From Schmidtea polychroa (taxonomy: Eukaryota): a DNA stretch of 64,000 nucleotides. The stretch is taken from NCBI GenBank assembly GCA_044892525.1, contig CM097885.1, forward strand, positions 24,988,001 to 25,052,000, written 5' to 3'. This document shows positions 5,438 through 49,500 of this stretch, in pieces (position 1 is the stretch's first letter; each line of letters starts with the position of its first letter). The position numbers and the translations under genes are program-made. Under the pieces are notes generated by a model. It was not told the DNA's origin and made no database searches. It saw only the letters and a program-made list of their open reading frames with translations.

Positions 5438-6623
5438 ATATTCATATCAATATACTCATATTCAAACTAACAAAAATTTAGTAGTTGTTTAAGCTGGCTA
5501 ATTTAGCCACTTTATTAGGTGATTTTTTTATCACGTTAGATGATGAGAGCAGACCCATCACTACATTTACCTTAGATAAATATTATAGAAAAGGGCCAAA
5601 CAAGTATGGGGTCAATGTGTTCGCCGAAGAACTTAATTAAATAAAAATTCTCTATCTCTCTCAATCCAATTTCCCAACAGTTCAACAATCCAATTCTCCA
5701 AATAAAAATAATAACTTTCAACATCTCCTGTGTGTACATAATCTTAATTCTAACTCTATTCTATTGACATTCATTTATAACATTCATAATTTTAATTTGA
5801 ACTTTATTGAATTTTACTTTTATTCATCTATATCTGTATGACCTTCATTTATATTGAATTTTATCCTTATCAAAATTGTATTTTTATTGTGAATTTTTAT
5901 TTTAATGTCATTTTTGTATTTAAATTTTTATTGTAAAACATAAAAAACATATATATAAAGGGTATTTAATAAGAAATCAATTTTTATAAATAATTTCAAA
6001 GTTAATATGAACGAAATAAATTAATATGCAAAGTATAAAGTATATAAAATTAATTCGTGTGTAAAGAGACAAAACATTTTGATATATAACGAGCTTGCAA
6101 AATCAGTTTAATAGCCAAAAATTATTGTCTTAACTATTCAAAGGGTAATCCTGAGAATAATTTAATAGCGAAACAGAACAGAACGTTTCACATAATTTTC
6201 ATAAAGAAGCAGTAAATAATACACAACACGCAACAACATATTAATGGTGGGTTACTGGTGGTTGAGTGTTTAAGTGCTGTTACCAGCGTAACCCAGAATA
6301 CAACATTGTTTTCCTCCTGGTACCCGTTGAGCAATCAACGTTGGTACTGTACCAAGGGGTTGAGTACTCGCAAAAAGTGAGCGCGTCAAGCACTGTAATC
6401 GTCGAGCACTCTATGGGTTCACGGACGCCGATAGAAGGCACGTGTCCGATTTGTTTCGGTCCCTCATCGAGGTTGTTTTCCCAAACGCCTTCCTACCAAT
6501 CCTCTTGTTTTAAACGACCGCAATGTTCAATCACATACTCATTAAACAACAAGAATCATTTATTAAACCACTACTATGTTACAAGGGTTGTTTATTCAGG
6601 AGGGTCGCACTCTCGAACGTCTC

Positions 6624-7060
6624 TCAGGATCGTGGATTGGCTTCAGTCTCTTTCAACTTCTGCTCGGCCAGCCAGGCCCTTTTCAATTTGTCGCGGGTAT
6701 TCCGCCCTAGCCGTTTACGTTTCGGCTTGCTTGTCTGGGCTGGTGGGTATATCTTGGCCAGCTCCACCGGAAGTGGGCGAATCTGCTCGCGAAGAGTGTC
6801 CTGGATAAATCTTTCATTCAGTTTGCTCTCGAGCGAGCGTACTTGTAGCTTCAGCGCTCGGATCTTGAGTTGATCTTGCTCCGCCTGGGTCTGGAGTTCC
6901 GAGATGTGGGTCGTCCGTTTCTTCATCTCGGCTGGACTGAACCAAGTGCCTTCGAGTTCTCGGCACTTGATTTTTAGCTTCTCGACCCTATTTTGAAAGT
7001 CCTCGGCTTTTTGCTGGGCCCGTTCGCGGTCCTTACGTAGGTTTTCGAGCAACTGGTACA
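6624..7060 (-). CDS. LTR-X ORF-B coiled-coil/basic protein
   Basis: Open frame with LENLRKDRE...EGTWFSP...KRKRLGRN conserved across copies; preceded by a TTCAG acceptor. Confidence 0.7.
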
Positions 7061-7372
7061 CTGAATGGAAACAATAATAAAATTCCATCGCTCGCTGTCA
7101 TGTGCGTAAAGTTGGTTAGATTAATTGCATGAAATTAATAAGTGGATGATGAGAAAAGGGTCACCTCAATCATGAATACACCCCATCAGCTATAAAGTCC
7201 AAAATGTAATAGCAGAAAAAATAATTTATTATACTACGAAGATACAAGATAGACTATATTTTCAAGGTTTAATGAACAGAAGAAAAATACAATTTGTTAT
7301 ACTACTACAAGGTAAATATCACTGGATGAAATCAGTCAAAACCATTCCATTCAAGCCACGACTGTCGATGGG

Positions 7373-7735
7373 TTAGGCCAGTATCTTACGGGGCCTTCCC
7401 CGTTTTCGTGGAGGGGTATCGGTCTCCTCCAACTCTTCAGGAGTCACCCCCAGTGTTTCGGCTTTAAGTTGGAGCTCGAGTCTCCTCAGCCGCCTTTGGG
7501 CCTCCACCACCTCGTCGGCCGCTCGATCGCGGGCTTCCCGGAGCACGTTGTTGGTGGGCTCTACTTTCACCCACGCCGGGGCATCGGGTTCTGGGCCACT
7601 TCGGATGACCGGACCATAATTATCGAGGTCCAACCCCCGGTTCCAGTCGTGTATCCGATACCATATGTACCGGGTCCGGAGCCGTGTTATCATCTGCCGG
7701 TATTCTACTTCGTCGGATTCGCTTGATTGGGACAT
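7373..7735 (-). CDS. LTR-X ORF-A, ~120 aa protein with C-terminal AT-hook/NLS (PPRKRGRPRK)
   Basis: Homologs at 41084 and 63428-63793 share RLRTRYIWY and GPEPDAPAWVK motifs despite many third-position differences. Confidence 0.75.
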   Translation of the reverse strand: MSQSSESDEVEYRQMITRLRTRYIWYRIHDWNRGLDLDNYGPVIRSGPEPDAPAWVKVEPTNNVLREARDRAADEVVEAQRRLRRLELQLKAETLGVTPEELEETDTPPRKRGRPRKILA

Positions 7736-8899
7736 TCTACCAAATAAACCCAATTAACAGAGATATTTGTGGGGGAATGATTGATTCGGTTAAATAGAGC
7801 GTATATTAATTTAAATCTCGGTTATTAATCCGTTATGTAATTTATCAATTAAAAATTTTCTTTTCCCACTGTTAGATCAGTGCCGCCGAAACCTCACCAA
7901 ACCTATGGCTAAATAAAAATAATAACAAAATTAATTTCTGAAGATCTAATCCTATTTGACAGGGTTAATTCAGCAATTCAACTTTTATATTCACAAAAAA
8001 ATAAATCTCACTTTGTTTATCTAATCTAATTATTGAAAGTTTTATAATTCATTTTTAAAGTTTGTTATGTCATCGACATAAGATTTTATTTTATGTTAAT
8101 TATTTGACCTCTGAATCAACCAGCTCCGTCGGTGCTGGGTGAGCTGTTGGAACTTAGTTTCCCACCTCATCCTCACTTAGACGGGGTTGTCATGTTCAGG
8201 GTGACCATCTTACTATGAATTTTAGGTTGTTTGTTTCGTCTCCGGATCAGTTCAATATCCATGCTACGGTGATATTATAATCGTGGATTTATGCCCATTT
8301 TCATGAGGTTTCAACGCCGAGTTTGCATCGGTAACGTGCACCCTGCTGTTTTCCTTCTAAAGGAGATTATTAGCCTGCTCATGGCTGTGTATTTTAGTTG
8401 GAATTCTACTGCTATACTCGTACACTGAATGCTTGGATATACAATTCCTCATTTGTCAAGGTAAGCTAAATTTTGTGATACAAAGCTAATTTTACGTTAA
8501 TAATTACTGTAACTAATTTGCAATGCAGTAAGGGGAATATTGATGATATTCAGGATAGCGGAAATTATGGGGAGCGATATAGATAGTAATAACAGTGCTA
8601 GTGATGATCTTAATCATAGAAAATGCTATTACTCATTTCGCAAGGTTCAGCTAACATACAGTAATATCCTTGAAACAAAAAGAAAATTTTATGCGTTTCA
8701 GGAACAGCGCTCATTTTATGGGTTATCATTTATCCTTAATCGGTGAGGTGGTTCATATAATATAAATACTCATGAATTATATCTTGGAGAGAAATACAGT
8801 TCGTAGTTTATGTATTTATAATTTAGGTTCTAGTCAACATACAACTTGTAATCTGCCTTCCCACACCTAATTTTATAATACTATTTAGAATTTCTATTC

Positions 8900-9960
8900 C
8901 AATAACCCAAATCCATACATAATTTATATATATAATTATCCCTGGTTTTTATCTTATAATCTAGTTGCATTAGTAACCCTAAATAACTATCCAGAGTTCG
9001 TGTTTTTTAGATTAGAGGTTATATATGACTGTTTATAATTAGGGTTATAGTCACACTACATTTATAATTTATATATTACTCGTTGTAAATTATAATTTTA
9101 TAATCCAAGTTTATATATAATCATCTATAATTGATATTTTGTACGTAAAATTAAATCGTAACCATCAATATACCTATATAATTTATAATCAACTATTTAC
9201 AATAATCATTTATAATTTATATTTTGTGAGTAAAATTTATTCGCACCTATTTATAGATTATCTTTCTATGGACAATATACGTTTATAATTTATATACAAC
9301 CATTTCTACTTTATATTTTATAATCAAAATTTTTATATAATTATTTATAATTTATATGTTTATAAGTAAAATTTATTCGTAACTATTTATAGATTATATT
9401 TTTAGGATCAATATCCGTATATACTTTATATATAACTATTTATAACCATTTATATATAACTATTTATACATTATATTTTATATTTTATACTCAAAATTTT
9501 TACCTAATTATTTACAATTTATGTTTTTGTAAGTAAAGTTTATTCCTAACTATTTATAGTTTATATTTTTAAGGTCCAAGTATATATAGGATTATATGTA
9601 ACTATCTATAATTCATATCCCTAATTATAAATTTATACGTAACTATTTGGAAATTATATTTTCATGGCCAAAATTTTTGCACAATCATTTGTAGATCGAA
9701 TTGTATAATCAAGATACATCGGTAACTTACATATAACCATTTATATGTTATATTTTTAAACTCGGATTTGCATAAAACTATTGATAAATTATATTCTTAT
9801 AAAATTTTGGGTATCATTCTTTATAGATTATAGTTTAATAATTTCCCATAAGTATTTATACTCTATATTCTAAATTCAGAGTTATATATAACCATTTATA
9901 AATGATATTTCTGTAATTAAAATTTTATGTATAATTATTTTTAGATTGTATTTGTATAAT
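8900..9960. repeat. Degenerate AT-rich tandem array (TTTATAATT-type) inside LTR-X
   Basis: Visible periodic array; the counterpart at ~43300-43980 is in the opposite orientation. Confidence 0.7.
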
Positions 9961-12900
9961 TAAGATAACCACTTATCATTTACTCTTAATACTCGAGATA
10001 GAGTTACCAATTATAGGTCGTATCTTAGGTTTAAGGCCTATATTGTATTATCATCGTGCATATATAATCTATACATAGCCGCTCATATATATAAGCCAGG
10101 GTTCGAACTTAGCATAAGATTATATTTTATGAGATAATCTAGAATTCACGGTTATAGGATGTTTTTAATTTACACTTTATATACAAATTCCATTTTGCAA
10201 TTTATAAATTTTTCTTTTTATAAATAATCTATAGTTATAATTTTAATTGATAGGTACTTTATAGTTGAATGGGCCAATTTATAATGGAACAGACATTCAC
10301 ATCAAAAATTTTATTTTATAAATTAAAAAGACTTTATCGATAATCATTTAAATGATGATATTACATTCTTTAATAACACTTCTGTAATATTGATTCATAA
10401 GGGGAAAACTAAAGAAGTTAGTTATCTTTATAATATGACCCTAACTCCTGATCGATTCGGATGTTGGCAATGCTACATTTTAATCCTGAGATGAAAATAC
10501 ATACTATTCGCTGGGGCTTTTATACATGATTGAATCTATCCCATCCTTTACGCTTGTCGAAATTCGAGGTGTTATCATCGTAATTAGATCCGAGAAAACC
10601 CGTACACCTTTATAAAAAAAAATTTTTATTTACTAACGATGTTCGTCCAACGCCTAAGTGGAGAGGTCCCAACCGACTACATTAACTGAATTGTAATTGC
10701 TGTGTTTAATTTGGGTCTGAGATCTACTCAATTATGATCCTAGTGTGAAGTAGTGTGTGAAATTTTTAATGTTGATTTTAAATGTGTACTGCATTGGAAC
10801 TCGGGAAGAATGCTTGCTTACACGGCCCCACTGTGACCGCTACGACAAGCCATATTGTAATGTTGAGTTGAAACATCACTGTCGACCGATAAATAAATAT
10901 ATGGAGCCATAGCGGAGGGGTTTTATCGACACAACTCCATGGTAGAACCATGAAGTGGCCGACCTCCGATGACCGAACAAAAAAAAATATATAAGAGATA
11001 TTGCCTGTCTGCATGTGAAATCGTTATTTGAAAATTAATATTAAATGCAGGACTAAATAGAGACGCACTAAGACGCCGCTGATTAGTCAAAAAAAAAATA
11101 AAAACAAGTTAGATCTTGAGGGGGTCAAAATCAATTAAAATCATTGACATTAAAATCATTTGCATTAATGAATCAAAACATAAATATACTAATATCAAAA
11201 ATGAGAATGATGAACATCAAAAAGGAAAAACTACTTACTATTAGTTTTCTGGACAAAATTTTCGTTCACAAAATATTGGCATAAAAAAAAATGATGATTG
11301 TGACTGAAACGTGTCAGTATATATACCTATTTTGTACACGTGTATGTATTGATGCATTAAAACAAACTCGAATTCTTTTTATTCCAGAATTTTCTATTTT
11401 GCGATTTTGATATTTTTAGTGGCAATTTTAGTGCCATAATTTTTGTTTTTATTTCTATATTTTTATTTTCTAATTATTTTTCATTAATTTTACGTCCATG
11501 ATGGATTTGGAACGGTTCCAGAACATTCCATGTTAATTTTAATTTAATTTTTATTTTAGTGATGTCTTATGAATTTCTTTTTAAGATTTTCTTTATTTTT
11601 ATTACTAATTTATTTATTTTTCTAAATTTTATTGTTTAAGGTAGCTTTTACGATGGTCATCGCCATTTTTATGGAATGTTCTCGGTTTTTCTGGAATTTT
11701 TTTCTGTTTTTACCATCTTTAAAGTTATTCGAGTTTGTTTCTTGTAACTCTATGTTTATTTGGTTATTTTTGAGTTAGATTTTGCATAGCTTCTTGCGCT
11801 TGTATAATTTTATTTAATTTCTGTGTTTATTTTTTGTTGCTTTCTCCTTTAATTACCATTGTTTATTTGGTGTAGTTTTTAATATTTAGCTATACTTTTT
11901 GCTTTTTTGCATGTTGTGTACCTACACATTTCAGTCACAATTAGTATTTTGGGTCTAGAAGTCAGTTCTAGCCCAACATTAAGAAGAACATAATACGCAC
12001 CTATTGCTCAGTGAATTTTGGAAAAGCTTGGAAAATAAATTGTATAGTTCAAAAGGTGAATTTTACTTATTAATAAAATTTTGTTGAATAGTCTTATTGT
12101 TATTGAATTAATTATATAAGAACCAGTAAGTTGGGGTTTTCAAATAGTGAGACCTTAACAATCACAAATATTTACCTAAATAATTTCCGGCTAATAGTCA
12201 AGATCGGGTATTATGTTTCCACCAGAATCAGGGAGGTGCAATGCAACGATCCGTGCATTTTACGCGGGTTTCTTGCATTCCCTAACTGCAGTTGTTGTAG
12301 GTGGCTGGAACAACATCAGCTCTATTGGTAATTTTCTTCGTTTTATTTGAATGTTATTTTCAATGTTCAAGGCACGTATGTTTCTACAAAAAACTCCTCG
12401 CAAGAATTCACTCGTGCAAGAAATAACTCATGATCGGTCATGTCATGTTGAATGTAACTACACCATGAATCAGTCAAAATAAATTCTTAAGTACCGTGAC
12501 CAACTGAATTCATATGATTTAAATTATATAAATGTAAAAGTATTTCTCAAATATTGAACGCTGTTAATTATGAACCAAATCGATAGTTTTGAATAATCAC
12601 ATCATTTTATCCAATAATTTAACCGTCAATTGTAAGACCCCCACAATATGAACAAAAAAGGTGACTAATATAGGAAAAGAAAGGATTTGCCAAGAAAAAA
12701 ATTAACTTGCGAAAAGAGGATAAACGAGATGGATAAAAACCAGAGACAGAAGTACAATGTTTCAGTTGGATTGGTTATTTAGCTTTTGAATATAGAATTC
12801 GAGAAAGTTTAATTAATCTTTTAATTAAGAAACGACAGAAAAAATTGAGGAAAAGTGGGTTTAATGAGTATGGAAGCAGAAATATAAGTGTTTCAAGAAA

Positions 12901-14031: not shown

Positions 14032-17000
14032 TAGGGTGGGTCGAATGTTAATAAATTTTGAGTTCAAGAAAGGAAACATGGTTAAAAAGTTGTATTTTGG
14101 TATAGAAAAATCGAATCAAACCATTTTACTTAGATTTATGGACATTTACTGCTCCCAACTTTTCTCCGAAAATGCAGTTCAACATAAGTGCGAAAACAAT
14201 GTAATTTGGCTAGTGTCGGAATGTGTTTTGCGCCTTTGTCCATATTTAGATGTAGCTTTCTTAAGATCTTATAAGTATATTATTTACTCTCTTGGGCTGA
14301 GATAGTATATTCTGTGTCGTCATCCCGCATTGAAATATATCCTGACAACGTCAGTGATTAGGAATGGCCAAATTTGAATTATCCTTTTCAAAGACAAAAA
14401 TCAACTTTCGAAATTATTTTTTATTAAAAACATCCAGCCAAAAGTTTAGAAATGTATTAGCGAGGGCATAAAAAGAAGTCACATGAAATCAGCTTTGCTT
14501 TGCACCTTGGGCAATTCCTTCCTTGATTTTTTACACAGTAGTACCATACCATGTCTGGACTTGTGACCAAACACTTTGCAACTGGCAGAAGAAACATCTT
14601 TGATGGCTCTTTCAACGGCTTGAGAATGACAGGGAAATTGTTCTAATGTAATTTTCTTATTCATCTTCAATTCATGATCCAATATATGAGATAAAAGAGG
14701 GGGAGGCGTCAAATTACATTTTGTCGAGTCAATCATGTCAACATATGATGTAGCAGACGACTGAAGAAAGACAGTATTCTTGTCCATAGTGCGAATCACT
14801 TCGGAAGGGAGAAAATTTTGTCTTGCAGTTATGATTTTTTCTGTTGCAAACTTTCTGATTTCTTCATCATCATCACCAACAGCAGCTAGGAGTATATTTT
14901 CTGGATGTGAGAAGTAATTGTTGTTCTGAATGACAGGAAAGATGATTTCTTGGTCTGATGGATCCAAATCCTGCAGAAGTTGGAGCATATAAAAAATATT
15001 TCTTGCACCATCTTGGCATGACGAGTGAGTCTTTATATAAAACCATGACGGTCCATAGAAATTGACAATAAATTTCACTATTCGCATGAGAGGTTCAGAT
15101 GGAGCAGTTTCGGACATATATAGTCGCAGAATTCTATTAGCTTTCGTTAGCCAGCGACTGTGATTCAAATTTCCTGGTTGTGCCATTTGTAGAAAAGGGA
15201 CATCCTTGTTGTTGTGGTACCCTTTCTGGACTGCCAAGCATACTCCGAGGAAATACAATTGATAAGTGTTCAATTCTTTCTTGACATTTTCACTAATATC
15301 TACGACCTTTCCAGGAAGGGACATAAAGGCTACTACGGGCTTGTCTTTTGGATCAAAATCAAGAACGCTTCCTATTTCACCACATGACGTTTTTGGACCT
15401 TTTGTTTCTCCACCATCGACGACTGAAAAATACTTCCTGAATGGCAATTCATTTGCATGCAACAAGCATATCAGCCATTGTAGAGGTCGCCCTAGGCTTT
15501 TTTCGAGTCTTCTGATTATTCCATTATTTTTTCCGGTGTTTGTATTGGTTCCATCGCACACAATTGCTTGAAGGGTCAGTGAGGACTGCGTGCTAACGAT
15601 GATTGACATGATTTCTTTGCCAATATCCACAGCTTTACTACTTTGAGGTACAACATGATCGATATATGTATCCCTTGGAAAGGCGACAATCACATAATGC
15701 TCCTCTTTTAGGATCCTTCTATGAAGTAAGGTGGAATCTTGTTTCCCGTCGAAACCGAGGCAAATCAAGTTTTTCGCTTCTGCTGAATGCTGTTCAATTT
15801 CTCTCTCCTTCCAGTACTTTCTCTGACGCCGTAATTTTGCGGGATCGATGATTGTTTGAGAGGATAACAGTTCCATATCTTTCAGAAAAGCGTTTACTAG
15901 CAAACACGTGTCTCTGTTGCTCACACCACATCTGTCAACAGCTTTACTTAATTCAGGATAATGTCTTCTATTTTGAAATTCATCACATTCTTCTACGCTT
16001 GACTCTGAGCTTTCTGTTGAATTGTCTAACTTATCTTTACTTTCATCACTAGCGGCTTCACTCTCCGTGTCACTTCTTGAGGTCGGATGTAGATCGTTAA
16101 CTTCAGTGTCCATTATTTCATTTTTCATTTGTTTTCCTTTTCCTGTAGGGCTGCTTTTCGTTTGTTTTCTCTTCAATTTTGAGGTTTCCTGTCTGTCCGT
16201 ATTTCCGATTTTCATGTTTCTGGTAGTTTGTTGGTCAATCCAGAACTCCCACTCTAAGGTAGGAATTTTCAAGGCCAATCGGCATGTACACTGACTTCTT
16301 CCACGAGCACCATCATTAAAACATTTGCAGCAACATATGTCAAACAATTTGGAAAACGAGCTTAACTTATCTTGAAATTTGGCAGATGACCTCTTGCATT
16401 CTGGATACTTCTCTAATTCACGCACTTTTGATATTAGTCGCTTGACACGAACCACAATACTACTGAACTCAACAGTTGGGATACTTGCCTTCATATAAAT
16501 TTCCTTCACCTTATTTGCGAGAAGAGTTGCTTGTTCGTTAAAGCCAGTATGAAATTGCGTACATTTCTCATTGTAACAGTAATCACGAAACACATCTTCA
16601 CAAGTAGGTAATTGGTTTCTGGGTAGTTCACAAGTTTGACCAAACAGACAATGACGTGATTTACTTCTTGTTTTGCGAAATTGGTTATTTCTCTGTCCCT
16701 TCATAACTGCTCTTCTGTACTCAGCTCTGGCAAAATAAAAGTGAATCATCAAGTTAACTTTTTTAATTAGGTCCAGCAAACACTTGACATGTAATCGAAA
16801 CAAATTAAATTATCTGAGTTTAGACTGACTAGTAGTATCCATGTGGATTATGTGTTGACTGTAGTGTGTGTGTTAGTATTGTTCAGAAGAAATTGTCTTT
16901 GTGAGTGCTTGTGTGAAGGTGCTTCCGTGAATTAACCTCTCTATACATGCACACGTTAGCTTGGACTTGTGAATAGAGCATGTCAAAAATGGTCTTTCTG

Positions 17001-18583: not shown

Positions 18584-19739
18584 ATGTCCAAGAATCCTTC
18601 AACCACGACGCCTTTCCGACAACGCTTCTTGTGCGCCGACAAAAACTCTATCATTAAAACACTGCAAACCCAAATCGGTCTATTGAAGAAGAAGAAAAAC
18701 CATTTCGAAGGGACGTTGTTCACACCCACGCAAATGAAAGAAATGCGGATGAAACTATCTCGGGTCGAACATTGCCGCGATAGTCTTATAGGGGAGAGCC
18801 GTACTCAGTGGCTTCTCATTAGAGAGCAATCAGAGGCCTTGCACAAAGTCTATGTGCAAGCGACCCTCACCAAGAAAATCGTGACCGTGCCTATCACGGA
18901 AGGGACAATGTCTTCGCCCTACATCATCAAACATCAAGAAAATCCTGCACCAGCTGTGTGGACACGCTTTTATCGCTGTCTACTTTCTATATCTGTGTCA
19001 CGGGGGTCAGTCAAGTGACCTCGAAATCTATTCCAAAACCAGCGAAAATCACACCTCCAGTGTCACTGGTCAAATCAAAACGCCGACAACCGACACGATC
19101 GGAACGAAACAAAAAACGGAAGGGTTTGCAGGCGAAACGAGAGACCCAACTAGTTGCTGAAGGGATTTGACTAGCCCTGAAAACTCCACCTGAGGCGCCA
19201 GTAACTTCAACAAGGCAGTCCAGTACTTCCTGGGAAGAAAACACCAGGGACTTATTCGATTTGGAAGAGATTCACGCAGGAACCTCACCTTCCACGTTAT
19301 GAGACCCGACGCGGAATCCACTATTGTAAATATAAGAACTGAGTAGAATGTCTTTATTGAGATCCTCTCTGTATGATCGTTGTGGTTTTAAGTCTCTATG
19401 ATATAACTAGGGAAAGTATATTTGATTCTTAAGATCCTGTACCTGTGGAGAAATAGGGGTAGCGCAAATCAAGGTCTCGATGAGCGAGGTAAGATGTAAG
19501 TCTTTCTATCGGCAGTCAGGAGAAGGGTAAAACGGAATATGGTGAATGAGTACTCATAAGGGGCTCACCTGCTTCACAATATTCGTCCATCATGGCACAG
19601 TACCAACATGATGTAAGTCATGGTGTGAGAGCGATCATGAGGGGTCTGAGTAGCGGTCCACAAAAATATTTCGTTCAGTTTGATTGACCTTCATTTCTTA
19701 GTAGAGTGAATGTGTGTTGACCTAGTCGACAACCCAACA
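18584..19739 (+). mobile_element. Divergent subfamily of LTR-X 3' part with broken ORF-B homolog
   Basis: FEGTLFTPTQMK resembles FEGTWFSPEAMK; basic tail KRRQPTRSERNKKRK in a second frame; TTCTATCGGCAGTC and CACAGTACCAAC blocks; ends AACCCAACA at 19739. Confidence 0.6.
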
Positions 19740-20523
19740 ATTTTAAGATATTAAAATGATTCTCTTTCACCATTATATTGTATCCATTGAAACAATGACA
19801 TTATATACACGATAAGATAGAATGACAAAAAAAGACTTTATTAAGATATAATATTTACATATTTATGATAAGTCAAATTGTTAATTATCATATTGTTATA
19901 CATTGACCCTTGGGGGCTCTACGTAGATATCCACCCGGTACTTGTTCGATAATATTTTTTACGCTCTAAATTTTCGAAGTAGCGTCCCATAACATCCAAC
20001 AATATTTCATCATTTAGTTGAACACACACCCATAAAACCCCCAAGCTGTCCTAAGACTTGGCTGGGCTCAAAAATTATCCCCACAAACATTTCACGCGTA
20101 AAACTATTGTTAAAAATTACTAACAGCCACACTTTCAAGATAAATATTGAGTATGAAAAGTACATAGTTTAATTTTGGCTGCATTTACGTAAAATTAAAA
20201 TTGCTTTGTAGAGAATTAATTAAATGTTAATATTTTAATTTGTTAGCAAAAGGGTCCGCTTGTTCCTTTCAATTATTGATTTTAAAGTAAAATTTCAGTT
20301 AAATATTTTATTTATTATCGTAATAAAAATTTCTCAGAGAAAATAATTTAATTTCAACCTTTAATAATTACAATCGATTTATAAAATAATTTATTTACTA
20401 ATCACAAAATATAAAAATAAAATATTTCGATCATAAAATACAAGTAATTTCAACAACTAATTATACCTTTATTAAAAAATAAAATCTTTTCACATAATAC
20501 ATAAACAGTTTCATTTCAAACAT

Positions 20524-22534
20524 TTAATCAACTTCTTCAACTGTCGGACCTTGTTTCCCAGCACCTCCTTGTCCGCCAGCTGCACCCGGTGCACCACCTG
20601 GAAATCCCCCTGGAAATCCGCCCGGAAATCCTCCAGCACCAGCACCACCTGCCCCTTGATACATTTTAGTCATTATTGGATTACATATCTTCTCCAATTC
20701 TTTATAATGATAATCAAACTCATCCTTAGTCGCCTGTTGATTCTTTTCCAACCAATTTATCGCTTCTTGACATTTATCAATTATCAGTTTTCTATCTGAT
20801 TCAGAAATTTTATCTTTCAGTTTTTCATCTTCAACTGTTGATTTCATTTGGTATGAATAACTTTCCAATGAATTCTTTGCAGCTATTCTGTCTTTTTGTT
20901 CTTCGTCTTCCTTTTTGTATTTTTCAGCTTCATTAACCATGCGTTCAATATCATCCTTTGATAATCGTCCTTTATCATTGGTAATGGTAATTTTATTCTC
21001 TTTTCCTGTACCCTTTTCAACTGCAGACACATTCAAGATACCATTTGCATCAATATCAAAAGTAACTTCAATTTGCGGAACACCACGTGGAGCTGGTGGA
21101 ATTCCAGCCAATTCAAATTTACCAAGCAAATTATTGTCCTTTGTCATCGCTCGTTCTCCTTCATAAACTTGAATTAAAACTCCCGGTTGGTTATCAGAAT
21201 ATGTAGTAAATATTTGCGTTTGCTTTGTTGGAATAGTTGTATTTCGTTTAATTAAAGCTGTCATCACTCCACCGGCAGTTTCTATACCCAAGCTCAATGG
21301 AGCTACATCTAATAATAATAGATCTTGTACAGCTTCTGATTTATCTCCTGACAAAATTGCCGCTTGTACTGCTGCTCCGTACGCAACTGCCTCATCGGGA
21401 TTGATGGATTTGTTCAATTCTTTTCCGTTGAACAAGTCTTGTAGGAGCTTTTGAATTTTGGGTATTCTTGTTGATCCACCAACTAATACAATCTCATGAA
21501 TTGTATTTTTATCCAACTTAGCATCTCTCAATGCTTTCTCTACTGGCTCTAAAGTCGAACGGAACAAATCAGCATTCAATTCCTCAAACCTTGCTCTTGT
21601 AATTGAAGTGTAAAAGTCAATACCTTCATATAATGAATCTATTTCCAAATTTGCTTGTGCACTGGAACTCAAAGTTCTCTTTGCTCGCTCACAAGCTGTT
21701 CTCAATCTTCTAACTGCTCGCTTGTTATCACTAATATCTTTCTTATGCTTCCTCTTGAATTCTTGAATAAAATGATTTACCATCCGATTATCAAAATCTT
21801 CACCACCCAAATGAGTATCACCAGCAGTAGATTTCACTTCGAAAATACCATCTTCAATTGTTAAAATTGATACATCAAAAGTTCCTCCTCCTAAATCGAA
21901 TATTAACACATTGCGTTCAGCACCAACCTTTTTGTCTAATCCATAAGCTATAGCAGCAGCTGTTGGTTCATTAATTATTCTTAAAACATTTAATCCACTA
22001 ATTGCACCAGCATCTTTAGTTGCTTGTCTTTGACTATCATTGAAATAAGCTGGAACAGTTACAACAGCATCTTTAACTGTTTTACCCAAGTATGCTTCTG
22101 CAATCTCTTTCATTTTTATTAAAACCATCGATGAAATTTCTTCGGGGAAAAATGTTTTTGTTTCACCTTTGAATTCTACTCGAATTTTCGGTCTACCAGT
22201 TTCATTTATTACATCGAATGACCAGTGTTTCATGTCACTTTGAACTGACGATTCATCAAATTTTCGACCAATTAATCGCTTTGCATCTAGAACATTTTAA
22301 TTACTTTACTCTAATTCAGTATTAATTCTTACCGAAAACTGTATTATTAGGATTCATCGCCACTTGGTTTTTTGCAGCATCTCCAATCAATCGTTCGGTA
22401 TCTGTAAATGCAACATAACTAGGTGTTGTGCGGTTTCCTTGATCATTCGCAATAATTTCAACTTTTCCATGTTGAAATACACCAACGCATGAATATGTAG
22501 TACCCAAGTCAATACCAATAGCGTTACCAGACAT
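20524..22534 (-). CDS. hsp70: Cytosolic heat shock protein 70, 654 aa, two exons (22534-22333, 22286-20524)
   Basis: [40 protein letters not shown] repeats and C-terminal GPTVEEVD. A 46-bp GT-AG intron (22332-22287) restores VF/DAKRLIG. Confidence 0.97.
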
Positions 22535-22611
22535 TTGGAATTCTTCAAAAGTTATAACACAATATAATAATTTTATTCAAAATTTGCAAATATACACGTA
22601 ATGAACTGCAA

Positions 22612-22720
22612 ACACTTTATATAATTAAAATATAGAAATTCTAGAAAACAAATTTTAAAACAAACATAAATTCTAGAATTAGAATATTAACAAAACGAAT
22701 GATAGAAAGTTGTAGAAACA
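22612..22720 (-). promoter_or_regulatory. hsp70 promoter: TATA box and heat-shock elements
   Basis: TATATAAAG on minus at ~22615-22623; TTCtaGAA at 22639-22646 and 22671-22678; GAAagTTGtaGAA at ~22705-22717. Confidence 0.75.
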
Positions 22721-23225
22721 TATTTACTTTATAAATCATTTTATTTAATAAAGTTTTAATGGAAAATGAACATTTTTAATAGTTTAATTAATTTTAATAA
22801 AGTATTTGTCAAATTTTTAAACAATATTATATTATGTAAATATTACACAAACTGTAAATCAATGACCAAAATGTAATATGACAATTATTTAACTCTTACT
22901 TTGTCAGGAAAAAATATAAAATGACCATATCGGTCTTTTAAGTATAATTTTTGATTATCAATATATATATTTATTTATTACATTTTTATAATAAGAAAAT
23001 CTGCACAATAAACAGAAAGGTTGTAGATAAAATTCATTAATTTGTAGTATGAGTCAATTATGAAAAGTCGTAAACAAAAAATATAGTCAAGAGCATAAAA
23101 TGACACCAGAGATACAACATTCATAAAATGCTCTTTTGATCACAATACATCAAAGTTATAATTATGAATTGAATTATATATTTATTACACTTTTATAATA
23201 AAAAAATCTGCACAGTCAACATAAG

Positions 23226-23693
23226 CAGGGTTACCAACTCGACCATTTTCACCCAAAGACTTCGGGTCTTCGGGTTGAACACTTATGACTCGTTCCAGAC
23301 TTGGTAACCTTGTAATGCATTTATTGAAAGAATTTTTTCAATAATGAATTCCGTTTGGAGAGATGAAAGAAATAAAATGAGAACTTTTTATAAGAATAAA
23401 TTTCAACATGAAATGTGAAGATTTTCTTACATATTTAAAAGCACCAGAACAAAAAAATTTACTTGAATGTTCATTAAAAACAACAAAATATAATTTTAAG
23501 AATTAATTATATTTTCTGAAGTTCCTATTTTTTTAATGTTTTCTTTTTTAATAAATTTTGTTGTTTTATGTTTTATTGTTATTGAATCAATATATTTTGT
23601 TTTATATTCATATGTATATATTATATATTATTAAATCTTCGGATGTAAAAATAATTTCTTCGGGTCTGACTCGTTCCAGACTTGGTAACCCTG
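23226..23693. mobile_element. Non-autonomous hAT MITE (468 bp)
   Basis: TIRs CAGGGTTACCAA / TTGGTAACCCTG with 8-bp TSD AACATAAG; inserted in a local ~200-bp tandem duplication. Confidence 0.9.
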
Positions 23694-23883
23694 AACATAA
23701 GAGTTGTAGATAAAATTCATTAATTTGTAGTAAAAGTTAATTATGAAGTCTGAAAACAAAAGAATATAGTCAAGAGCATAAAATGACACCAGAGATACAA
23801 CTTTCTTAAAAATGTTCTTTTGATAACAATACATCAAAGTTATAATTTCCTCCATAACTATTCTTAATCATCTTGTTTACCAT

Positions 23884-24798
23884 TGTTGGGGTTCAACAAG
23901 AGAGGCACAAAAATGAGGTGAAAATTGGCAAAAACACCAAATTCAAAATAAAAATTTAAAGTACAAAATATTAATTAAAAATCAAAAATTTTAAAAAATG
24001 AATATTTTCTGGGGGAAACTGGTATGGGCGGATGCTGAATAATGAGACGAGTTCAGCTATAATAAAATAAAATCAATGGGGGGTCCCTAAAAGGAATAAA
24101 TTACAAAAAAACAAAAATTAATTAAAAAATTAATTAACTAATGGAAAACCCGAGCTAATGGGAAACCCGAGCTAATGGAGAATCCGAGCTAATGGGAAAC
24201 CCGATACAATGGAAAACCCGAGCGAATTGAGAAATCAAATTTTGGGAAGGCAATTAATTTAGCCGGAGAAATCCAATTTTGGGAAGGCAATTAATTTAGC
24301 CGGATAAAAAGTAATAAGCGCCGTCAAAGAAAATGAACAAATTCCCTTCAATTGAATTAGACCTCCAAGAGGAAGCCCGGGGGAAATAAGACCAAAAATA
24401 ATTGGCAAAAATAAAGTCAATTACCAAGCGAGTATAAAAGCAACTGGCAAGAAAACAAAATGCCAGTTGGTCGAAGAAAAGAAAATAGAAGTTTGAAGAG
24501 AGCGAAAAAGGAAATATTAAAGTTAGTAGAAATAAAACCATTTAAAAAAATCGAACGTACCAGAAAGGGACATCTCCCGTTGGAAGATCTACCCCTGCGT
24601 GAGATTTGGTAAGAAATTGAAAAGTGCAGACAAAACCTGATTGTATCAAGTGTGAGTAAACTAATACAAGTGTAAAAGTGTAACTGCATCAGTGTCAATA
24701 AAGATTTTGTGTTGGGTTATTTATTTATTCATTTATTTATTTGGAAAAGAACACAAAGGAGTCAGACCGTAGTACCGACTTGCATTAAAAACCCAACA
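23884..24798 (+). repeat. 5' LTR (915 bp)
   Basis: TGTTGGGGTT...AACCCAACA termini; TATAAAA at ~24433; AATAAA at ~24697; matches 40323-40892 and 55424-56339. Confidence 0.93.
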
Positions 24799-24802
24799 TA
24801 TT

Positions 24803-24820
24803 TGGTGAGCCCGACGTGAT
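24803..24820 (+). promoter_or_regulatory. Primer-binding site, tRNA-Trp
   Basis: TGGTGAGCCCGACGTGAT, a 17/18 match to the tRNA-Trp PBS TGGTGACCCCGACGTGAT. Confidence 0.9.
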
Positions 24821-25192
24821 CAAAAGTCGGTGAAAATTTGTTGAAATTGTGATAATATTTGAGTGATACCGAAGAATAAAAAGATCGGTGAAAATTTGTT
24901 GAGATTAGTAAAGTATCGGAAAAATTTGGAAAAAGATAATAATAATTAAATAAATAAATATTGAAGTGAAACGTTTATTTGAAAGTGGTGAACATTTATT
25001 TGAGAATTATTAAAGTGGTGATTTTATAATTGAAGCAAAGTGGAAAAATTTGTAACGATTGATTGTTGAAAAGTCAAAATTAAAACGAAAGGTAAATTTT
25101 GTAATTGTAACACTTTGAATTTTAGACGAGTAAAGCCTGTGTTGACCCGATCATTTTATAAATTGAGAAGCCAAAGACTAATAGAGAATTTA

Positions 25193-27025
25193 ATGAGTAC
25201 CCAAAGGCTAACCAATAATACAAATAACAATGATGAAACACCTGTGTCCACGGTGGGCAACGGCAAGGAAGGCAATGATTATGCGAGTTGTCAAAAACTA
25301 CCTGTGGATCAGTACGGTGGAGATCCGCTGGAATTTGTCGATTTTATGGCAGATTACTATATGTATGCGACGGCCTATGGATGGAGCCAATCGATAATGG
25401 TGCAAAGATTACCGCTATACCTGAAAGGAGCCGCCAGAGAAGCGTGGCAACAAATTGATAAAAGAATAGTAGCAAATGACTGGACCAAGTTGAAAGACGC
25501 GCTAGCCACGAAATTAATCGGAGGGGATATAAAACGGATCATGCGACAGAAATTCTATTACCGCGTACAAAAGCCAGAGGAATCAGTAAGTGAGTTTGCT
25601 TATCATTTATCAACTCTTGCAGAGAAAGCGTTCGAAGTGAAACCAGAACAGGCCGAGATGTCAAAGCAGGTAAAAGAATTACTGCAGGATCAATTCTTGT
25701 CAGGAGTAAAGAAAGAAATTAAAAAGGCTTTATGCTATGTTGATTTTAATGACTTTGATGAATTGATCAAAAAGGCAATGAAAATTGAGCTAAATTTAAA
25801 AAGCACACAGTCAAAATCAGAGTCGTTTGCAGTCATCTCAGGCGCAAGCGAAAGATCAGTAACCCCAATTAGAAACAATCGTTTTCAAGAAACAAGTAAT
25901 CCATCACCAAAATTTAGATCCAAATTTGAGTCGAACAAGGCAACAGATATTCAAATAGATGGAAAGGAAGGTCCCATCCAATGTAGTCATTGCCAAAGGA
26001 TTGGACACCATGTTAACCAATGCTGGTTTAAAAATAGAATACAGAGAAGCCCAATTCCGATTCAGTGTGATAATTGCCAAAGAATGGGACATGACAGCAA
26101 TCAATGCTGGTCCAAAAATAATGTACAACGGAGTCCAAGGCAAATGTGGCCTGATTGGTTAAAAGGAAATGGTGCGAAAAGTTCCACTAAAGCGAACATA
26201 AATGAGCAGAGAACTAATGATAACTTACAATGCTTTAATTGCGGAAGAAAAGGGCATGTGTCACGAAATTGTTTTGCCAGGTCAAGATCAAGATCAACAT
26301 CACCATCACCGCAGAGAGATAAAGTAAATCTACAAGGACAAATTCAATGTCATTCATGCAGAAGTTATGGACACATGGCTAGATCATGTCCAAGAAATAT
26401 GGATAAATTCCAAAGGCCCATATTAAAGAAATCGATTAGGTTTCAGAGTGACAAACCGCAGATGGATAATGTAGCTTTTATTCAGCCAGATAATTTTAAT
26501 GAAAGAATTGAAAGCGAAGTGAGAGAAATGGGTCGACGTTTGGATCGATTGATGTCAAAGTTTGAATCAGAAGAGGACTACAATAATCACATGATGTATG
26601 AGTCGCAAGAGGAATTGAATGAAAAAGAGTCGAAAAGGAGAGTTATAAAAGATGATTTAGAAAGTGAAAAAGCAACAATGATAATGACCAGAATCGAAAA
26701 ACTAATTGGAAATAATGAAATAGAGTCGGCTAAAGTGATCAAATCGTTGAGAGAATTAAGTCAAATATCTTTGAGTATGAGAAAGATAAAAAGTGTAATT
26801 AGCTTGTGCGTTAACTACTATAATATGAATCCAAAGTATAAAGAAGAAATTAAAGAATTAATGAAAATATTTGGAAAAGCTTTGAGAGAGAAAACAGGGT
26901 TAGATTCCATCTTGGTGGAAGTAGTAAACGAGATTGATAAAAGTGTATTATGTTGTCGTTGTGAGGCAAATGATTGTGTAAATGATTTAAAGAAGAAATT
27001 AAAAGAAAAAAGGAAAGATGCATGA
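25193..27025 (+). CDS. gag: Gag (capsid-like domain plus four CCHC zinc knuckles) and first helical module
   Basis: YLKGAAREAW, RVQKPEESVSEF and QFLSG capsid motifs; four CX2CX4HX4C knuckles; first ATG at 25193. Confidence 0.9.
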   Translation: MSTQRLTNNTNNNDETPVSTVGNGKEGNDYASCQKLPVDQYGGDPLEFVDFMADYYMYATAYGWSQSIMVQRLPLYLKGAAREAWQQIDKRIVANDWTKLKDALATKLIGGDIKRIMRQKFYYRVQKPEESVSEFAYHLSTLAEKAFEVKPEQAEMSKQVKELLQDQFLSGVKKEIKKALCYVDFNDFDELIKKAMKIELNLKSTQSKSESFAVISGASERSVTPIRNNRFQETSNPSPKFRSKFESNKATDIQIDGKEGPIQCSHCQRIGHHVNQCWFKNRIQRSPIPIQCDNCQRMGHDSNQCWSKNNVQRSPRQMWPDWLKGNGAKSSTKANINEQRTNDNLQCFNCGRKGHVSRNCFARSRSRSTSPSPQRDKVNLQGQIQCHSCRSYGHMARSCPRNMDKFQRPILKKSIRFQSDKPQMDNVAFIQPDNFNERIESEVREMGRRLDRLMSKFESEEDYNNHMMYESQEELNEKESKRRVIKDDLESEKATMIMTRIEKLIGNNEIESAKVIKSLRELSQISLSMRKIKSVISLCVNYYNMNPKYKEEIKELMKIFGKALREKTGLDSILVEVVNEIDKSVLCCRCEANDCVNDLKKKLKEKRKDA

Positions 27026-27414
27026 TAGAGTTGAGATTTAATGAGAGATTCTTAGAAAATGACGAATTTTTGATAGATTGTGGATTTATACCAGGGAGTA
27101 CAAATGAATTAAAAATGGAAAATGTAATTACTAGTGATGAAATAATGAGTAGTAAAATAATAGACAAAAGGAATTCAAGGGAGATATTAGAGGAATTAAA
27201 TGATGCGTTATATATTGGAGATGAAGATGAAATCAATGAGAAGTTACAGATTATTGAGAAATTAGAAATGGAGGAAAACGATAAACTAAAAATAGTGAAT
27301 GCAATACGACCATATTTACATGTGAAAACCAGATATGCCAAGTTATTAAGAAGTTTATTGCAAAGATTGGGCAAGGAGCTCAGAAAGGCAATTTTTGATA
27401 GCATTAGATTATGA
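27022..27414 (+). pseudogene. Frameshifted segment of the polyprotein (second helical module)
   Basis: The only segment out of frame with gag and pol. DEFLIDCGFIP resembles DEYLYDCGCVP in the next ORF. Confidence 0.65.
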
Positions 27415-30400
27415 GGGATATGGCAAAACGGAATATGTAGACGAGCATTGGTGTGCAAAGGTCCGAAAATTGCGGAAGAGAGCGGCTGAAACGCTGGGAA
27501 AAGATGGAATTATTATAGTAATGTACAAAAGTGAAGAAATTGACGATGATGAATACCTATATGATTGTGGGTGTGTACCACAAGAGCTGGATGAAAACGG
27601 ATATTTGATCCGAGACAGACGAGTGGGATATTTAGTGAACCATATAGTCGTAGTAAAAGGAGTGAGTTTAGAAGTAAATATTGAGTCTAACAAGCCTGAC
27701 ACAGAGGAACAAAATGAAAAAGTTAAGGGAAATAAAGAAATTGATGAAATCGTTAGTGATAATGAGCAAAAAGATCCTGATAACAAAGATCAGTCCACAG
27801 AACCAGACGTACAAGGAGAGCCACTTGTACCTGAAGGCGAAATAAATGGTGAAATCAAAAATAAGAAAGTTAGAACTTTATATGAAATAAAGAAATATTT
27901 AGTGAGGTTAGAACAGGACGTCGACGAAACTAAGAAAATGTTGAAACATCTCGTTAAAGCAGTATATCCAATGTTGGACATAGAAGTAGAGGTAGATGAT
28001 GAACTGAAAGAAATAGTTAAAGAGATGAAGAATAGGCTTCCTGAAGTGATGCAGAAATTTGGCGAAGAGAATACATTTTGCGAGAGATCAGTAATTGAAA
28101 ATTTGGCAAAAAATGAAATTAATAAGGAAGTTATAATAATAGTTTTAATTTATGTTGTTTTAGAAATTGGAACCCATACGTTCGCAAGGTCAGACAAGTT
28201 AGAAAATTTGATAGACATCGCTGCCCGGCTAGTAAACGAATATTTAATGAGCTGGGTAAACGAAAAAGGTGGTTGGAAAACACTGTGTTCATCTCTAACA
28301 GAAAAGAAAAATGAGAAGCAAGAAATGAGTCCACCCCAAAGACGAGTAAATGAAAGAGTTAAGCCAGAACTAAGAAAAACTATGATATTTCCATGGGCGA
28401 TGTTTATGGTGATTACGTTTTGTGCAATAATTACACAAACATCATCTTTAGTTGCGTACGATTGTTCCCAAACTGAAATGGGAAAAGTTTATTCGGTAGT
28501 AGATATGTCGGAGTGCCCAGGTGCGTATCCGAGCAGTTTAAAAATAGAAAATGACGTAAAATATTATGTGTATCAAGAGTCTGATCTGCGAAGAACTCAA
28601 GTGAGAGAGTGTATTGTCAAACATACAACATTTGTATTCTATTGTGGTAAATGGAGCCATACGTCACTCATAAAAATGCATGCGATACCTAGGCCAGTCG
28701 AGGTGCTTCCAGAAAACTGTCTAGCAGCATTTCAAACAGGAGAATTAAAAATAAGTCCAGAAATTCGTTTAAAGGCAAAATTGAACCATAGAATACGAGA
28801 AACAATAATTGTAAAGGGAGTTATGAAAGCAAATGGCGACTGTGAAGGTGAACCATATAAAATGAACGGTAAAATTATTCAGCAAACAGTAGTGCTAGAA
28901 GAATATCTCACGAAGTTGAGAGAGTTCGAAGGAGCTTTCGATGATGATACGGGAAAATTACAAACTCATCCATTCTGTAATATGAAACAAACACATTGTC
29001 AAACAGGGGAATCGATTCTTGTTTATAATGTAGAAACAAATAAGTGTAATTTAACGCACTTAAAAACTATGAACTTTAAAGAGCTAGTAGGAGAACAGTT
29101 TAGAGATAAACCAGATAATTTCAATATGAATTATAGACCAAATAATACCATTAAATCAACCCCAGTATGGACAAAGCAAATGGGAACAGTTTTAATGTCT
29201 ACGTTACCAGCAGATGGAATGCGATTTATAAAAAAGGAAATCACAAATAAATGTGGTCGAATGGTATATGTAACAAATTATAAAGGTGTTTACGTGTCTA
29301 GAAATGTTGTGGAAGAAGCAAAAATTAAAATTCACAGAGATGACATTAAACTTACTCATTATTTTAATAATAAAATTGATTATTTGTTTCATTTTAGTCA
29401 AAACATCATGGAAAATGTATATAGAGAAATGATTCTGAACGATTGTAAGTTGAATAAAGAGATTCTCCGAAATCGGATGGCGATGACAATTACGAATCCA
29501 AATTTAGTAGCACCTATGCTAATATCAGAAAATGGAGTGTTTGCGAGAATATTTGGAGAAGCATTATACAGTTACAAATGCAAAGAAGTCACAGTGAAAA
29601 TTGCCAAATACGAAAAATGTACGAACGAATTACCAGTAAGCTTTGGGGGAAAGGTACGATTTATGGAACCGATAACTAGAATCTTGCTTGATGAACAAAC
29701 TAAACCAAAACTTTTGCAATGCAATCGATTATTAGCCCCTTTATACCGATTAGCTACAGACTCATGGATAGCCTTATCAGATTATCGTGGGGTCAAGACT
29801 CCAGACAAACTAGAATTAACAAATTTAGAATACCTGATAAATTTCACATCACTAAACAAAATGGCACAAATGGGCTTGTATGCAAGCGAAGATATCGAAG
29901 AAGCTCAAAGGAATTTGTTGTTTCCATCCAAAAAGGAACGGATAATTTCAGAAATGATTGACACAGTATTACCGAATGGAGAAGGAACAGTAAATTACGA
30001 AAATTTGCTAACACCTGATCATTTCAAACGAGCTACATATAAAAAGATGGAAAAGATTTGGGGCAAGTTCATGTTTTTGGGACAAGCATGTGCAGGTTTA
30101 GTTGGAATTTACGTGATTATGATAACGGCAAAGATGGTAGTGTCGCAAATGTTGTCAGTACATCGAATATACGTAATATCGGGATGGTCATGGAAATTAG
30201 TTATTGGTTGTATTCCATTGTTGGCTAGATTCTTTATTACAGATCATCAATTTAAAGAAATGGCAAGAGTAAGGGCACAATTAAGAAATGGCCGGAAAAG
30301 TGAGGAATCTACGTGTCAGTCGGAAGATAAAAACGACGATCATAATGATGATAACAACAACGGGGAATCGGAGTATAAATGCTTTCGAAAAAGTGTAATA

Positions 30401-35362: not shown

Positions 35363-35790
35363 TAAGACATAAATACTTTGCATGCAAAAATTGATAAAGT
35401 AGTAGTAGTAATATAGTATAAATATTTTATGGATATTATTAGTATTTTATTTCATTATGGATATGATCAATATTTCATTTTATTTTACTTGTGAATCTGC
35501 ACTTTTCAATGTCAACGGAAAGAATCAATTTGATTGGTTAGCGCTGTGTTAAGGGGGAGAGAAAAACGGGGTTAAGGGAATTTTCACAAGGGTATTAAAA
35601 GAGGGTAAAATCCATTAAACTCCATTAATTTTGAGGAAAAAAATATATATCAACAATTAACTAAACGGTAATTATTATTATTTATTTATACAGCTAGTAG
35701 CTGGGACAGTATCCTTCGGATACTTCATCTCAGCCCTAGTTTTAAAAGTAAAGTAAATTCAAACGTTAAATTATAACTATTTTAGCAAAA

Positions 35791-41083: not shown

Positions 41084-41448
41084 ATGTCTCAATTCAGTTC
41101 TAGCAGCGACGAGGGCACTGACCAGCAGACGATCACCCGACTCCGGACCCGGTACATTTGGTACCACATCCATCGGTGGAGTCAGGGACGGGATCTGGAT
41201 TGTGCAGATCGAGTAATCCGGACGGGCCCCGAAGTAGATGCCCCGGCATGGGTGAAGGTGGAGCCGGAGAACAACCGGTTGCGGGAGGCACGCGATCAAG
41301 CGGCCTGGGACGTGGAAGTCGCCCAGATGCGACTCAAGAAGATCGAGTTGCAAATCCGGGCAGAAAGGGAGGGAGTGCCCTGGAGGAGTTAGAGGAGGCC
41401 ACGGTACCCCCGAGAAAAAGAGGGAGGCCCCGCAAACGCCAAGCGTGA
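41084..41448 (+). pseudogene. LTR-X ORF-A copy with a 1-bp frameshift near 41381
   Basis: RLRTRYIWY...EREGVP in one frame and LEELEEATVPPRKRGRPRK in the next. Confidence 0.75.
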
Positions 41449-41479
41449 TTATCAGACTATAAATAACTTATTTTAGTCA

Positions 41480-44251: not shown

Positions 44252-44344
<93 letters not shown>

Positions 44345-44400
44345 TCATCATATATTTGATTTTAAAATGATAACTCTTAAAATTCCTAAATGACCCCCAA
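41480..44400 (+). mobile_element. 5' part of an LTR-X-related giant LTR (right end approximate)
   Basis: Starts TGTTGGGCTAGAACTGA, the reverse complement of 11962-11978. Collinear patches match 10730-11940, then the AT-rich array at ~43300-43980. Confidence 0.7.
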
Positions 44401-49264: not shown

Positions 49265-49500
49265 GGTGAAGGGACCAGGCCAAATCGGACACAAGCCTTC
49301 TATCGGCAGTCCGTGAACCCAGTAGAGTGCTCGACAATTACAGTGCAAGTAGTGCGCTCACTTTTTGCGAGCACTCACCCTCTTGATACAGTACCAACGT
49401 TGATCATTCAACGGGTATCAAGCGGTAAACAATGTTGTATCTTGGGTTACGCTGGCAACAGCACTAAAGAGCAAAATATTTGATCATCAGTAACCCACCA
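49265..49500 (+). mobile_element. LTR-X conserved 3'-terminal fragment
   Basis: AGGGACC...AAATCGGACAC...CAGTAACCCACCA. Confidence 0.8.

Follow-up and report, generated by a model that had tools for sequence, protein, structure and literature searches.

The solo long terminal repeat (LTR) at positions 6245–11978 of a 64,000-nucleotide stretch of the Schmidtea polychroa genome (the window; GenBank assembly GCA_044892525.1, contig CM097885.1, positions 24,988,001 to 25,052,000) contains two open reading frames (ORFs), ORF-A and ORF-B, both of which, to judge from their substitution patterns, are under purifying selection. The probability is about one half that these two genes are expressed by alternative splicing from a promoter within the LTR and that their products are early, trans-acting regulators. 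The LTR is that of a giant Gypsy-type element of a known class; its structure and the selection on its ORFs can be read from the genome itself, and it is from these that splicing is predicted and function inferred.

The Solo LTR and Its Element

An earlier note on this DNA, made from the sequence alone, had described a 5.7-kb solo LTR with TG...CA ends and a TTAA target-site duplication (TSD). The LTR is a solo one, 5,734 bp long, with exact ends on the minus strand (TGTTGGG...CCCACCA), TTAA on both flanks, and no interior. The TTAA is, however, not a fixed target: the TSDs of the family are 4 bp long and vary in sequence (CATG, ATAG, ATAT, GTAC, CAAG, TAAG, and AAGT among the elements compared), so the TSD sequence is not family-specific and a piggyBac-like specificity for TTAA is ruled out. 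Nor is the LTR a mosaic of unrelated insertions, which the note had considered; it is a single unit, since five close relatives (L022–L026) match it colinearly from end to end with 93–97% identity.

Sister LTRs flank gag-env-pol interiors in near-identical pairs, as the note had supposed. Two of the closest relatives of the window LTR are 5' LTRs followed by Gag, and a search of the same genome with ORF-A gave many matches in pairs, with 24–40 kb between partners. In 11 LTR pairs, identity in the longest block was 99.1–100%, and the two TSDs were equal (nine pairs) or differed by one mismatch (two pairs). Diverged copies exist, but the family is far larger than the three to five that had been counted: the own-genome searches gave 151 and 150 matches among the best-scored, drawn from 2774 and 6564 candidates at first look; these figures do not give the copy number.

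The sister copy that had been reported to precede a tRNA-Pro-like primer-binding site (PBS) ends at window position 4051. The PBS begins 8 nt beyond it, as it does behind the 5' copies of the pairs, and is complementary to the 3' end of tRNA-Pro(TGG) of the same genome, which, on this complementarity, is the primer tRNA of these elements. A tandem array of tRNA-Pro(TGG) genes with a spacing of about 475 bp lies at L127 (G000:C1 near 130.9 Mb), and the 3' motif has 1577 matches in the genome. No purine-rich tract is found ahead of the 3' LTRs; a conserved sequence that is not purine-rich stands there (L011:9719–9745 and other flanks), in the form of a GC-rich, palindrome-like motif plus TTTA.

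A full-length element (L011–L015) measures about 35.5 kb overall, with an interior of 25.5 kb. According to Pfam, the interior of the pair examined encodes Gag with CCHC knuckles, MATH, a mononegavirus-like fusion protein, protease (PR), reverse transcriptase (RT), RNase H, integrase (IN), ankyrin, TRAF, BIR, and RING. One frame of 2685 amino acids (aa) holds MATH, Monjiviricetes_fusion, PR, and RT, which means that an env-like fusion protein precedes PR-RT in frame. For a BCL2-like motif, Pfam gave no match in L013 and a weak one (E 0.007) in the window's other element.

Burro/GYPSM1 elements are giant Gypsy-like LTR elements of planarians, more than 30 kb in total and with interiors of up to 25 kb (PMC6431247). 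The elements described here match them in size class, in Gag with CCHC knuckles, in MATH, in a fusion protein before PR-RT, and in ankyrin/BIR/RING accessory ORFs, an assignment made by architecture against the published description. They differ in that this description names no LTR-internal genes, LTR intron, or common leader. Likewise, no genes within Burro LTRs are named in what a literature search returned, including passages of PMC6431247, PMC11410931, and PMC8532177; such genes may be shown in the Repbase GYPSM1 entry or in Grohme et al. (2018), supplements included, both of which lay outside that search. The window also holds, at 25193–37260, a Burro-like interior spread over several frames (Gag, a weak Bcl-2-like match, a viral fusion protein, PR, RT, RNase H, and integrase).

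Selection on ORF-A and ORF-B

The ORFs stand out from their surroundings in composition, with a GC content of 58% (ORF-A) and 53% (ORF-B) against 27–33% in the flanks. The earlier note's picture of two ORFs that keep their amino acids is borne out by the ratio of nonsynonymous to synonymous substitution rates (dN/dS), which is far below 1 for both. For ORF-A it is 0.07–0.29 in comparison with all nine subfamily representatives (p < 0.005 throughout); for ORF-B it is 0.12–0.19 in six of the nine comparisons, two of the others being saturated at synonymous sites and one having been dropped because an indel put it out of register. The two other sense frames give 0.4–3.0, and the antisense frame that shares third positions gives, as expected, low values (0.1–0.56). 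Within ORF-B, codons 1–44 are selected in nine of nine comparisons (p ≤ 1.6e-4), whereas the 20 codons upstream of the predicted acceptor are not and often contain stops.

Among 46 and 44 distinct intact sequences from 71 regions, dN/dS is 0.11–0.27 for diverged pairs and about 0.5 for near-identical pairs, although the choice of copies by protein similarity and intact frames biases these ratios downward. The difference between the two kinds of pair suggests that selection acts during replication and that decay follows insertion. The claim that the ORFs persist in every solo LTR does not hold: counted from the match tables, stops are present in 12 of the 150 listed ORF-A matches and 27 of the 150 listed ORF-B matches, and a young family lacks both ORFs.

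Predicted Promoter, Splicing and Poly(A) Signals

Forty LTRs were delimited, of which 29 are complete and carry both ORFs. The 11 set aside comprise one mis-delimited nest, three ORF-less LTRs, and seven of a related family, family 2, which has a 3.86-kb LTR with two donors and one 250-aa ORF-B homolog (L042:6161–6910) but neither ORF-A nor the AT-rich array described below. In all 29, a TATA box lies at LTR position ~655, and a donor of the form A|GT(A/G)AG follows 74–87 nt behind (Table 1). Subfamilies are 84–100% identical over LTR positions 1–680 and then, in many pairs, only 27–55% identical just behind the initiator; the window LTR is closer to L011 over positions 1001–1300 than upstream. 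We infer that this is the pattern expected from exchange of U3 at strand transfer, which would place the start site at ~680. An alternative is strong selection or gene conversion acting on U3.

The open frame of ORF-B is 6624–7088. The ATG used as its start in the earlier note is found in only 6 of the 29 complete LTRs; the other 23 have no in-frame ATG upstream of ORF-B. The simplest reading of the sequences is that splicing would create the start codon from the final A of the leader and the initial TG of the exon, since the donor A|GT and the acceptor AG|TG are both present in 29 of 29, upstream ATGs are few, and selection starts at this AG. Family 2 has a Met of its own at the position aligned with the predicted start. 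A start codon made by splicing is known from the env mRNA of Drosophila gypsy (PMC2585583); there, the codon is split as AT|G and belongs to the interior env, whereas here it would be split as A|TG and belong to a small gene of the LTR. The accessory ORFs of the interior likewise begin directly behind an AG.

Other routes to ORF-B were considered and rejected. Searches for a donor inside ORF-A that would be in phase with ORF-B, for a frame overlap, and for a spacer micro-exon found none that is conserved, and trans-splicing of an AUG-ended leader, of the kind known in flatworms, would read another frame, one that stops at once in subfamily 1b. The predicted leader exon also contains, in most subfamilies, a conserved upstream ATG (~11240–11285), which opens a short upstream ORF in some of them and is in frame with ORF-B in others. 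AATAAA candidates for the end of R lie at window positions ~10628, 7228, and 6562.

Table 1. Features of the solo LTR and its flanks (window coordinates).
Feature	Position	Strand	Remarks
Solo LTR of Burro-type giant Gypsy element	6245..11978	-	5,734 bp; TG...CA ends, TSD, colinear relatives, paired copies around gag-env-pol
TTAA TSD, left copy	6241..6244	.	exact match
TTAA TSD, right copy	11979..11982	.	exact match
Predicted U3	11299..11978	-	~680 bp, A-rich; common to otherwise diverged subfamilies
TATA box and initiator-like TCAGT	11302..11325	-	conserved in 29/29; start site predicted near 11299
Predicted leader exon	11239..11298	-	ends in A; donor GTAAGT at 11238–11233; A|GT(A/G)AG in 29/29
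Conserved structured RNA block in predicted intron, candidate response element	10790..10980	-	z -2.73 vs shuffles
AT-rich tandem array	9177..9573	.	Tandem Repeats Finder (TRF) periods 136/42 bp; in ~1-kb low-GC zone
Predicted splice acceptor AG of ORF-A	7737..7738	-	1 nt before ATG; YAG 1–2 nt before start in 29/29
ORF-A	7373..7735	-	120 aa; two predicted helices (low-confidence model); C-terminal single AT-hook/NLS-like (nuclear localisation signal) motif
AATAAA after ORF-A, predicted poly(A) signal	7225..7230	-	spacer AATAAA in 57/61 regions, some duplicates of one locus
Predicted splice acceptor AG of ORF-B	7061..7062	-	exon begins TG; AG|TG in 29/29; codon-level selection starts here
ORF-B exon	6624..7060	-	145 aa including predicted splice-made Met; coiled coil, GTWFSP kink, Arg/Lys-rich motif
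AATAAA and downstream GU-rich tract after ORF-B, predicted poly(A) signal	6559..6564	-	~320 nt from LTR end in 9/11 ORF-B-bearing ends
Highly conserved foldable 3' block adjoining PBS position, predicted U5 core	6245..6482	-	common to all families; z -3.47

Transcription would probably start about 680 nt into the LTR, and a 60-nt leader would be spliced either to ORF-A, which would use its own ATG, or, across some 4.2 kb, to ORF-B, where the leader's A plus TG would give ATG, each mRNA then ending at its own AATAAA. Their acceptors being the first two behind the promoter, ORF-A and ORF-B would be the default products, including those of solo LTRs.

Contigs that might bear on these predictions come from four runs on the window LTR and one on the sister LTR, all of them RNA only by guess. 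No joint between leader and acceptor was seen among the loose ends listed (22 of 243 and 6 of 123), which is no evidence either way, and a short junction motif, used as a probe for spliced forms that had been retro-copied, gave no matches. The ORFs are covered deeply and the spacers thinly, a pattern that spacer divergence also yields. In run X6, six contigs end in a T-run at window position 11587, within the predicted U3; this may be a sense poly(A) site in U3, perhaps ending the last interior accessory mRNA, or the result of internal priming.

The Two Proteins and Their Possible Targets

The C-terminus of ORF-A reads PRKRGRPRKILA, in agreement with the AT-hook that had been noticed there. 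AT-hooks have a P-R-G-R-P-type core with basic flanks and bind AT tracts in the minor groove; in ORF-A, the core RKRGRP, flanked by basic residues, is invariant in the 13 aligned copies. ORF-A resembles HMGA-type proteins in its RGRP core surrounded by Pro, Lys, and Arg, but it has one C-terminal hook where those have several, and the rest of it has no known relative. Homolog searches with ORF-A found none, and its structure model is poor (predicted TM-score, pTM, 0.32). ORF-A is chimeric in L038/L039, where the 5' part is of the subfamily 1b type and the 3' part of the 1a type, a sign of recombination between co-packaged RNAs.

For ORF-B, the description as a coiled coil with a basic part also stands, at the level of a model. 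Residues 3–87 are modelled as a parallel homodimeric coiled coil, and the basic motif lies ~25 aa behind it. The homodimer of residues 1–100 scored 0.56 against 0.00 for the best control, with at least 98% of contacts agreeing between runs and a confidence (pLDDT) of at least 83. The mark for this score is reached by 21 of 30 solved pairs and none of 23 single chains (17 of 29 and 0 of 30 for eukaryotes), with the caveat that a coiled coil may pass through likeness to solved coils. Neither ORF has a named homolog or fold in Pfam, PDB sequences, the ESM Atlas, or Foldseek, none of which gave anything usable, and a single-sequence homolog search with ORF-B found none. A profile search with ORF-B gave 13 matches among 1.84 billion representatives, none of them named; the 12 that were read all share the ORF-B core, and in the distant homologs from other datasets the basic motif reads NRRRRERRR. 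In the database proteins P0002–P0011, an ORF-B-like segment is joined to what appear to be host genes (transporter-, protease-, and ribosomal-protein-like, by eye); these fusions are probably gene-prediction chimeras and possibly cases of exonisation.

Within the predicted intron, a 190-nt block of RNA can form 43 pairs, five of which have changed on both sides, and 98.8% of the cells are paired against 39–51% when the structure is slid; it is retained in the ORF-less, gag-only family described below, and an Rfam scan gave nothing at gathering level. The AT array that the earlier note placed in the same LTR is also present, within a zone where GC is 0.18 (9001–10000). It occurs in the lineages with ORF-A and is absent from family 2, a comparison of two lineages, and its units differ between subfamilies.

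A family of gag-only elements (L104–L107) bears on these targets. Its 5.3-kb LTRs lie ~16 kb apart around a 1572-aa Gag frame without RT or integrase matches, and it lacks both ORFs while keeping the RNA block, the AT array, and the 3' block. All 40 scored matches are near-identical, and the family appears young. Loss of the ORFs with retention of the cis elements would fit cis elements served by trans factors. In three ORF-less copies, the base before the donor is G, G, and ambiguous, i.e., the usual G in two of three.

What the Proteins May Do

The basic motifs of both proteins would fit a role as nuclear regulators. RNA seems a likelier ligand of ORF-B than DNA: the protein would dimerise via the coiled coil and bind the RNA structure of the intron via its Arg/Lys motif, which would preserve the long unspliced RNA and allow its export. 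HIV Rev and HTLV Rex are export factors of this type. Such a role for ORF-B is put at slightly under even odds, and it is favoured because an RNA of 30 kb that contains many acceptors has to be shielded from splicing, as the RNA of Cer1 is by its export factor CERV (PMC10309623). Like CERV and like Rem of mouse mammary tumour virus (MMTV; PMC9412291), ORF-B would be a default spliced product, oligomeric and basic, with a structured RNA in the intron that would be protected, features that are predicted here from sequence and models. Its coil carries heptad leucines, among which a Leu-rich export signal, as such factors have, would not stand out in a motif scan. No sequence similarity of ORF-B to Rev-like export factors was found; it differs from them in that its gene and the candidate response element both lie inside the LTR. 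Somewhat more tentatively, ORF-A would act in the nucleus as an AT-hook protein, opening or activating the LTR; the AT array may be its target.

Coding frames within an LTR, and hence duplicated with it, are not new: HIV nef and foamy-virus bel2 lie in or overlap U3. MMTV has sag/naf, sag lying in U3 (PMC9412291). The earlier note drew the parallel with sag and nef, which is weakened as regards placement: those frames stand upstream of the main start, whereas the two ORFs here are predicted to lie downstream of it, the promoter motifs and the breakpoint being 3.5 kb upstream of ORF-A, and the predicted leader, intron, acceptors, and poly(A) signals are all inside the LTR. The fullest version of the proposal would make the LTR a complete early transcription unit, with a promoter, a leader, a 4-kb intron containing a response element, and, on the side of R/U5 (where R may be up to 4.7 kb long), two regulator genes that are spliced alternatively. 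A Tat/Rev-like pair would then come in trans from the many solo LTRs of the genome and shift both the 30-kb elements and the gag-only elements that depend on them from an early phase of short mRNAs to a late phase of mRNAs and genomic RNA. As a whole, this is rather doubtful.

The proposal put forward in the earlier note, a transactivator or anti-silencing pair at the LTR promoter, would have ORF-A act through the AT array and ORF-B either co-activate as a dimer or inhibit PIWI-interacting RNA (piRNA)-guided silencing. The invariance of the AT-hook core and the absence of the array from family 2, which has no ORF-A, speak for it, as does the acidic, aromatic tail (FFNLDELF) with which the family-2 ORF-B homolog, a protein that also has CxxC motifs, ends and which resembles an activation domain. 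That Burro elements are PIWI targets, Burro RNA rising when piwi is knocked down (PMC8532177), also speaks for it. It is nevertheless unlikely, in that just two autonomous lineages are compared, the array units differ between subfamilies, ORF-B of family 1 lacks the acidic tail, and its basic motif stands at a distance behind the coil, unlike that of basic leucine zipper proteins. Another possibility is that the proteins act on the host or the particle instead of on expression of the element, much as the interior's cargo with its links to apoptosis and ubiquitin would, and that their position in the LTR is incidental. The interior is indeed rich in host-modulating domains (BIR, TRAF/MATH, RING, and ankyrin), and searches with the two proteins turned up no homolog whose function is known. 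What makes this improbable is the presence of nuclear-type basic motifs in both and the fact that ORF-B homologs have remained in the LTR in two deeply diverged families, which suggests that position matters.

Least probable, and by our estimate very much so, is that U3 is very long and includes the ORFs, so that their expression would, in the manner of sag or nef, require the 3' LTR of a full-length element or else an internal promoter not yet seen, solo LTRs being silent. U3 is the usual site of LTR-overlapping ORFs (MMTV sag; PMC9412291), and conservation is highest in the block at the LTR's 3' end. Yet TATA box, initiator, and donor are conserved at LTR positions ~650–740, exactly where the subfamily breakpoint falls, and the last base before the donor complements the first two of ORF-B.

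Several observations weigh against two LTR genes that are spliced from an LTR promoter and encode regulators. The family-2 donor, too, is A|GT (in one of two donors) although its ORF has its own ATG, so ORF-B alone does not account for the final A of the leader. A single long contig, of 904 nt in run X1, extends to both ORFs; it enters the intron side of the ORF-B acceptor and appears to be unspliced; a joint between 7565 and 7071 was rejected as an A-to-B splice since it extends ~11 nt into the intron side and belongs to this contig. The motif of family-1 ORF-B is rich in Lys (KPKRKRLGRNTRDKLKR) and may be a mere nuclear localisation signal, and the covariation in the RNA block comes from about three lineages. 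As for ORF-A, its single hook gives no AT_hook match in a Pfam scan and the genome is AT-rich throughout, which together make selective binding to the array doubtful. The thriving of the ORF-less family would also fit dispensable ORFs. A further point is the downward bias in dN/dS.

Other Elements in the Window

A broken relative of family 2 lies at 18584–19018. At 41084–50560 is a nest in which a subfamily-1b LTR is split between ORF-A (41084, a frameshifted copy) and ORF-B (49703); the splitting insert is an 8-kb solo LTR of the ORF-less, gag-only family (41480–49500, TSD GTCA), which itself holds a hAT-like transposase ORF (45483–47423, label by eye). A 5.3-kb duplication (20024–25311 and 51564–56852, 99.6% identity) contains an hsp70-like ORF (again by eye) as well as the beginning of a gag gene with its leader. 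Further mobile-element-like ORFs are found at 681–1964, 14479–16749, 50688–51335, and 58749–59639; by eye, these are non-LTR endonuclease-like, transposase-like, a hAT tail, and Tc1/IS630-like.

Implications

Solo LTRs are usually treated as gene-free promoters. If the proposal made here is true, each of these solo LTRs would be a high-copy, gene-bearing unit, able to act in trans on intact and on non-autonomous elements. For those who annotate genes, the ORF-B exon with its strong acceptor calls for caution, as it appears fused to host genes in several database proteins. For the elements themselves, the proposal, if true, would explain how an RNA of 30 kb, for all its acceptors and its many poly(A) signals, avoids being spliced and is exported, and it would extend regulation of the kind found in complex retroviruses to the Gypsy elements of invertebrates.

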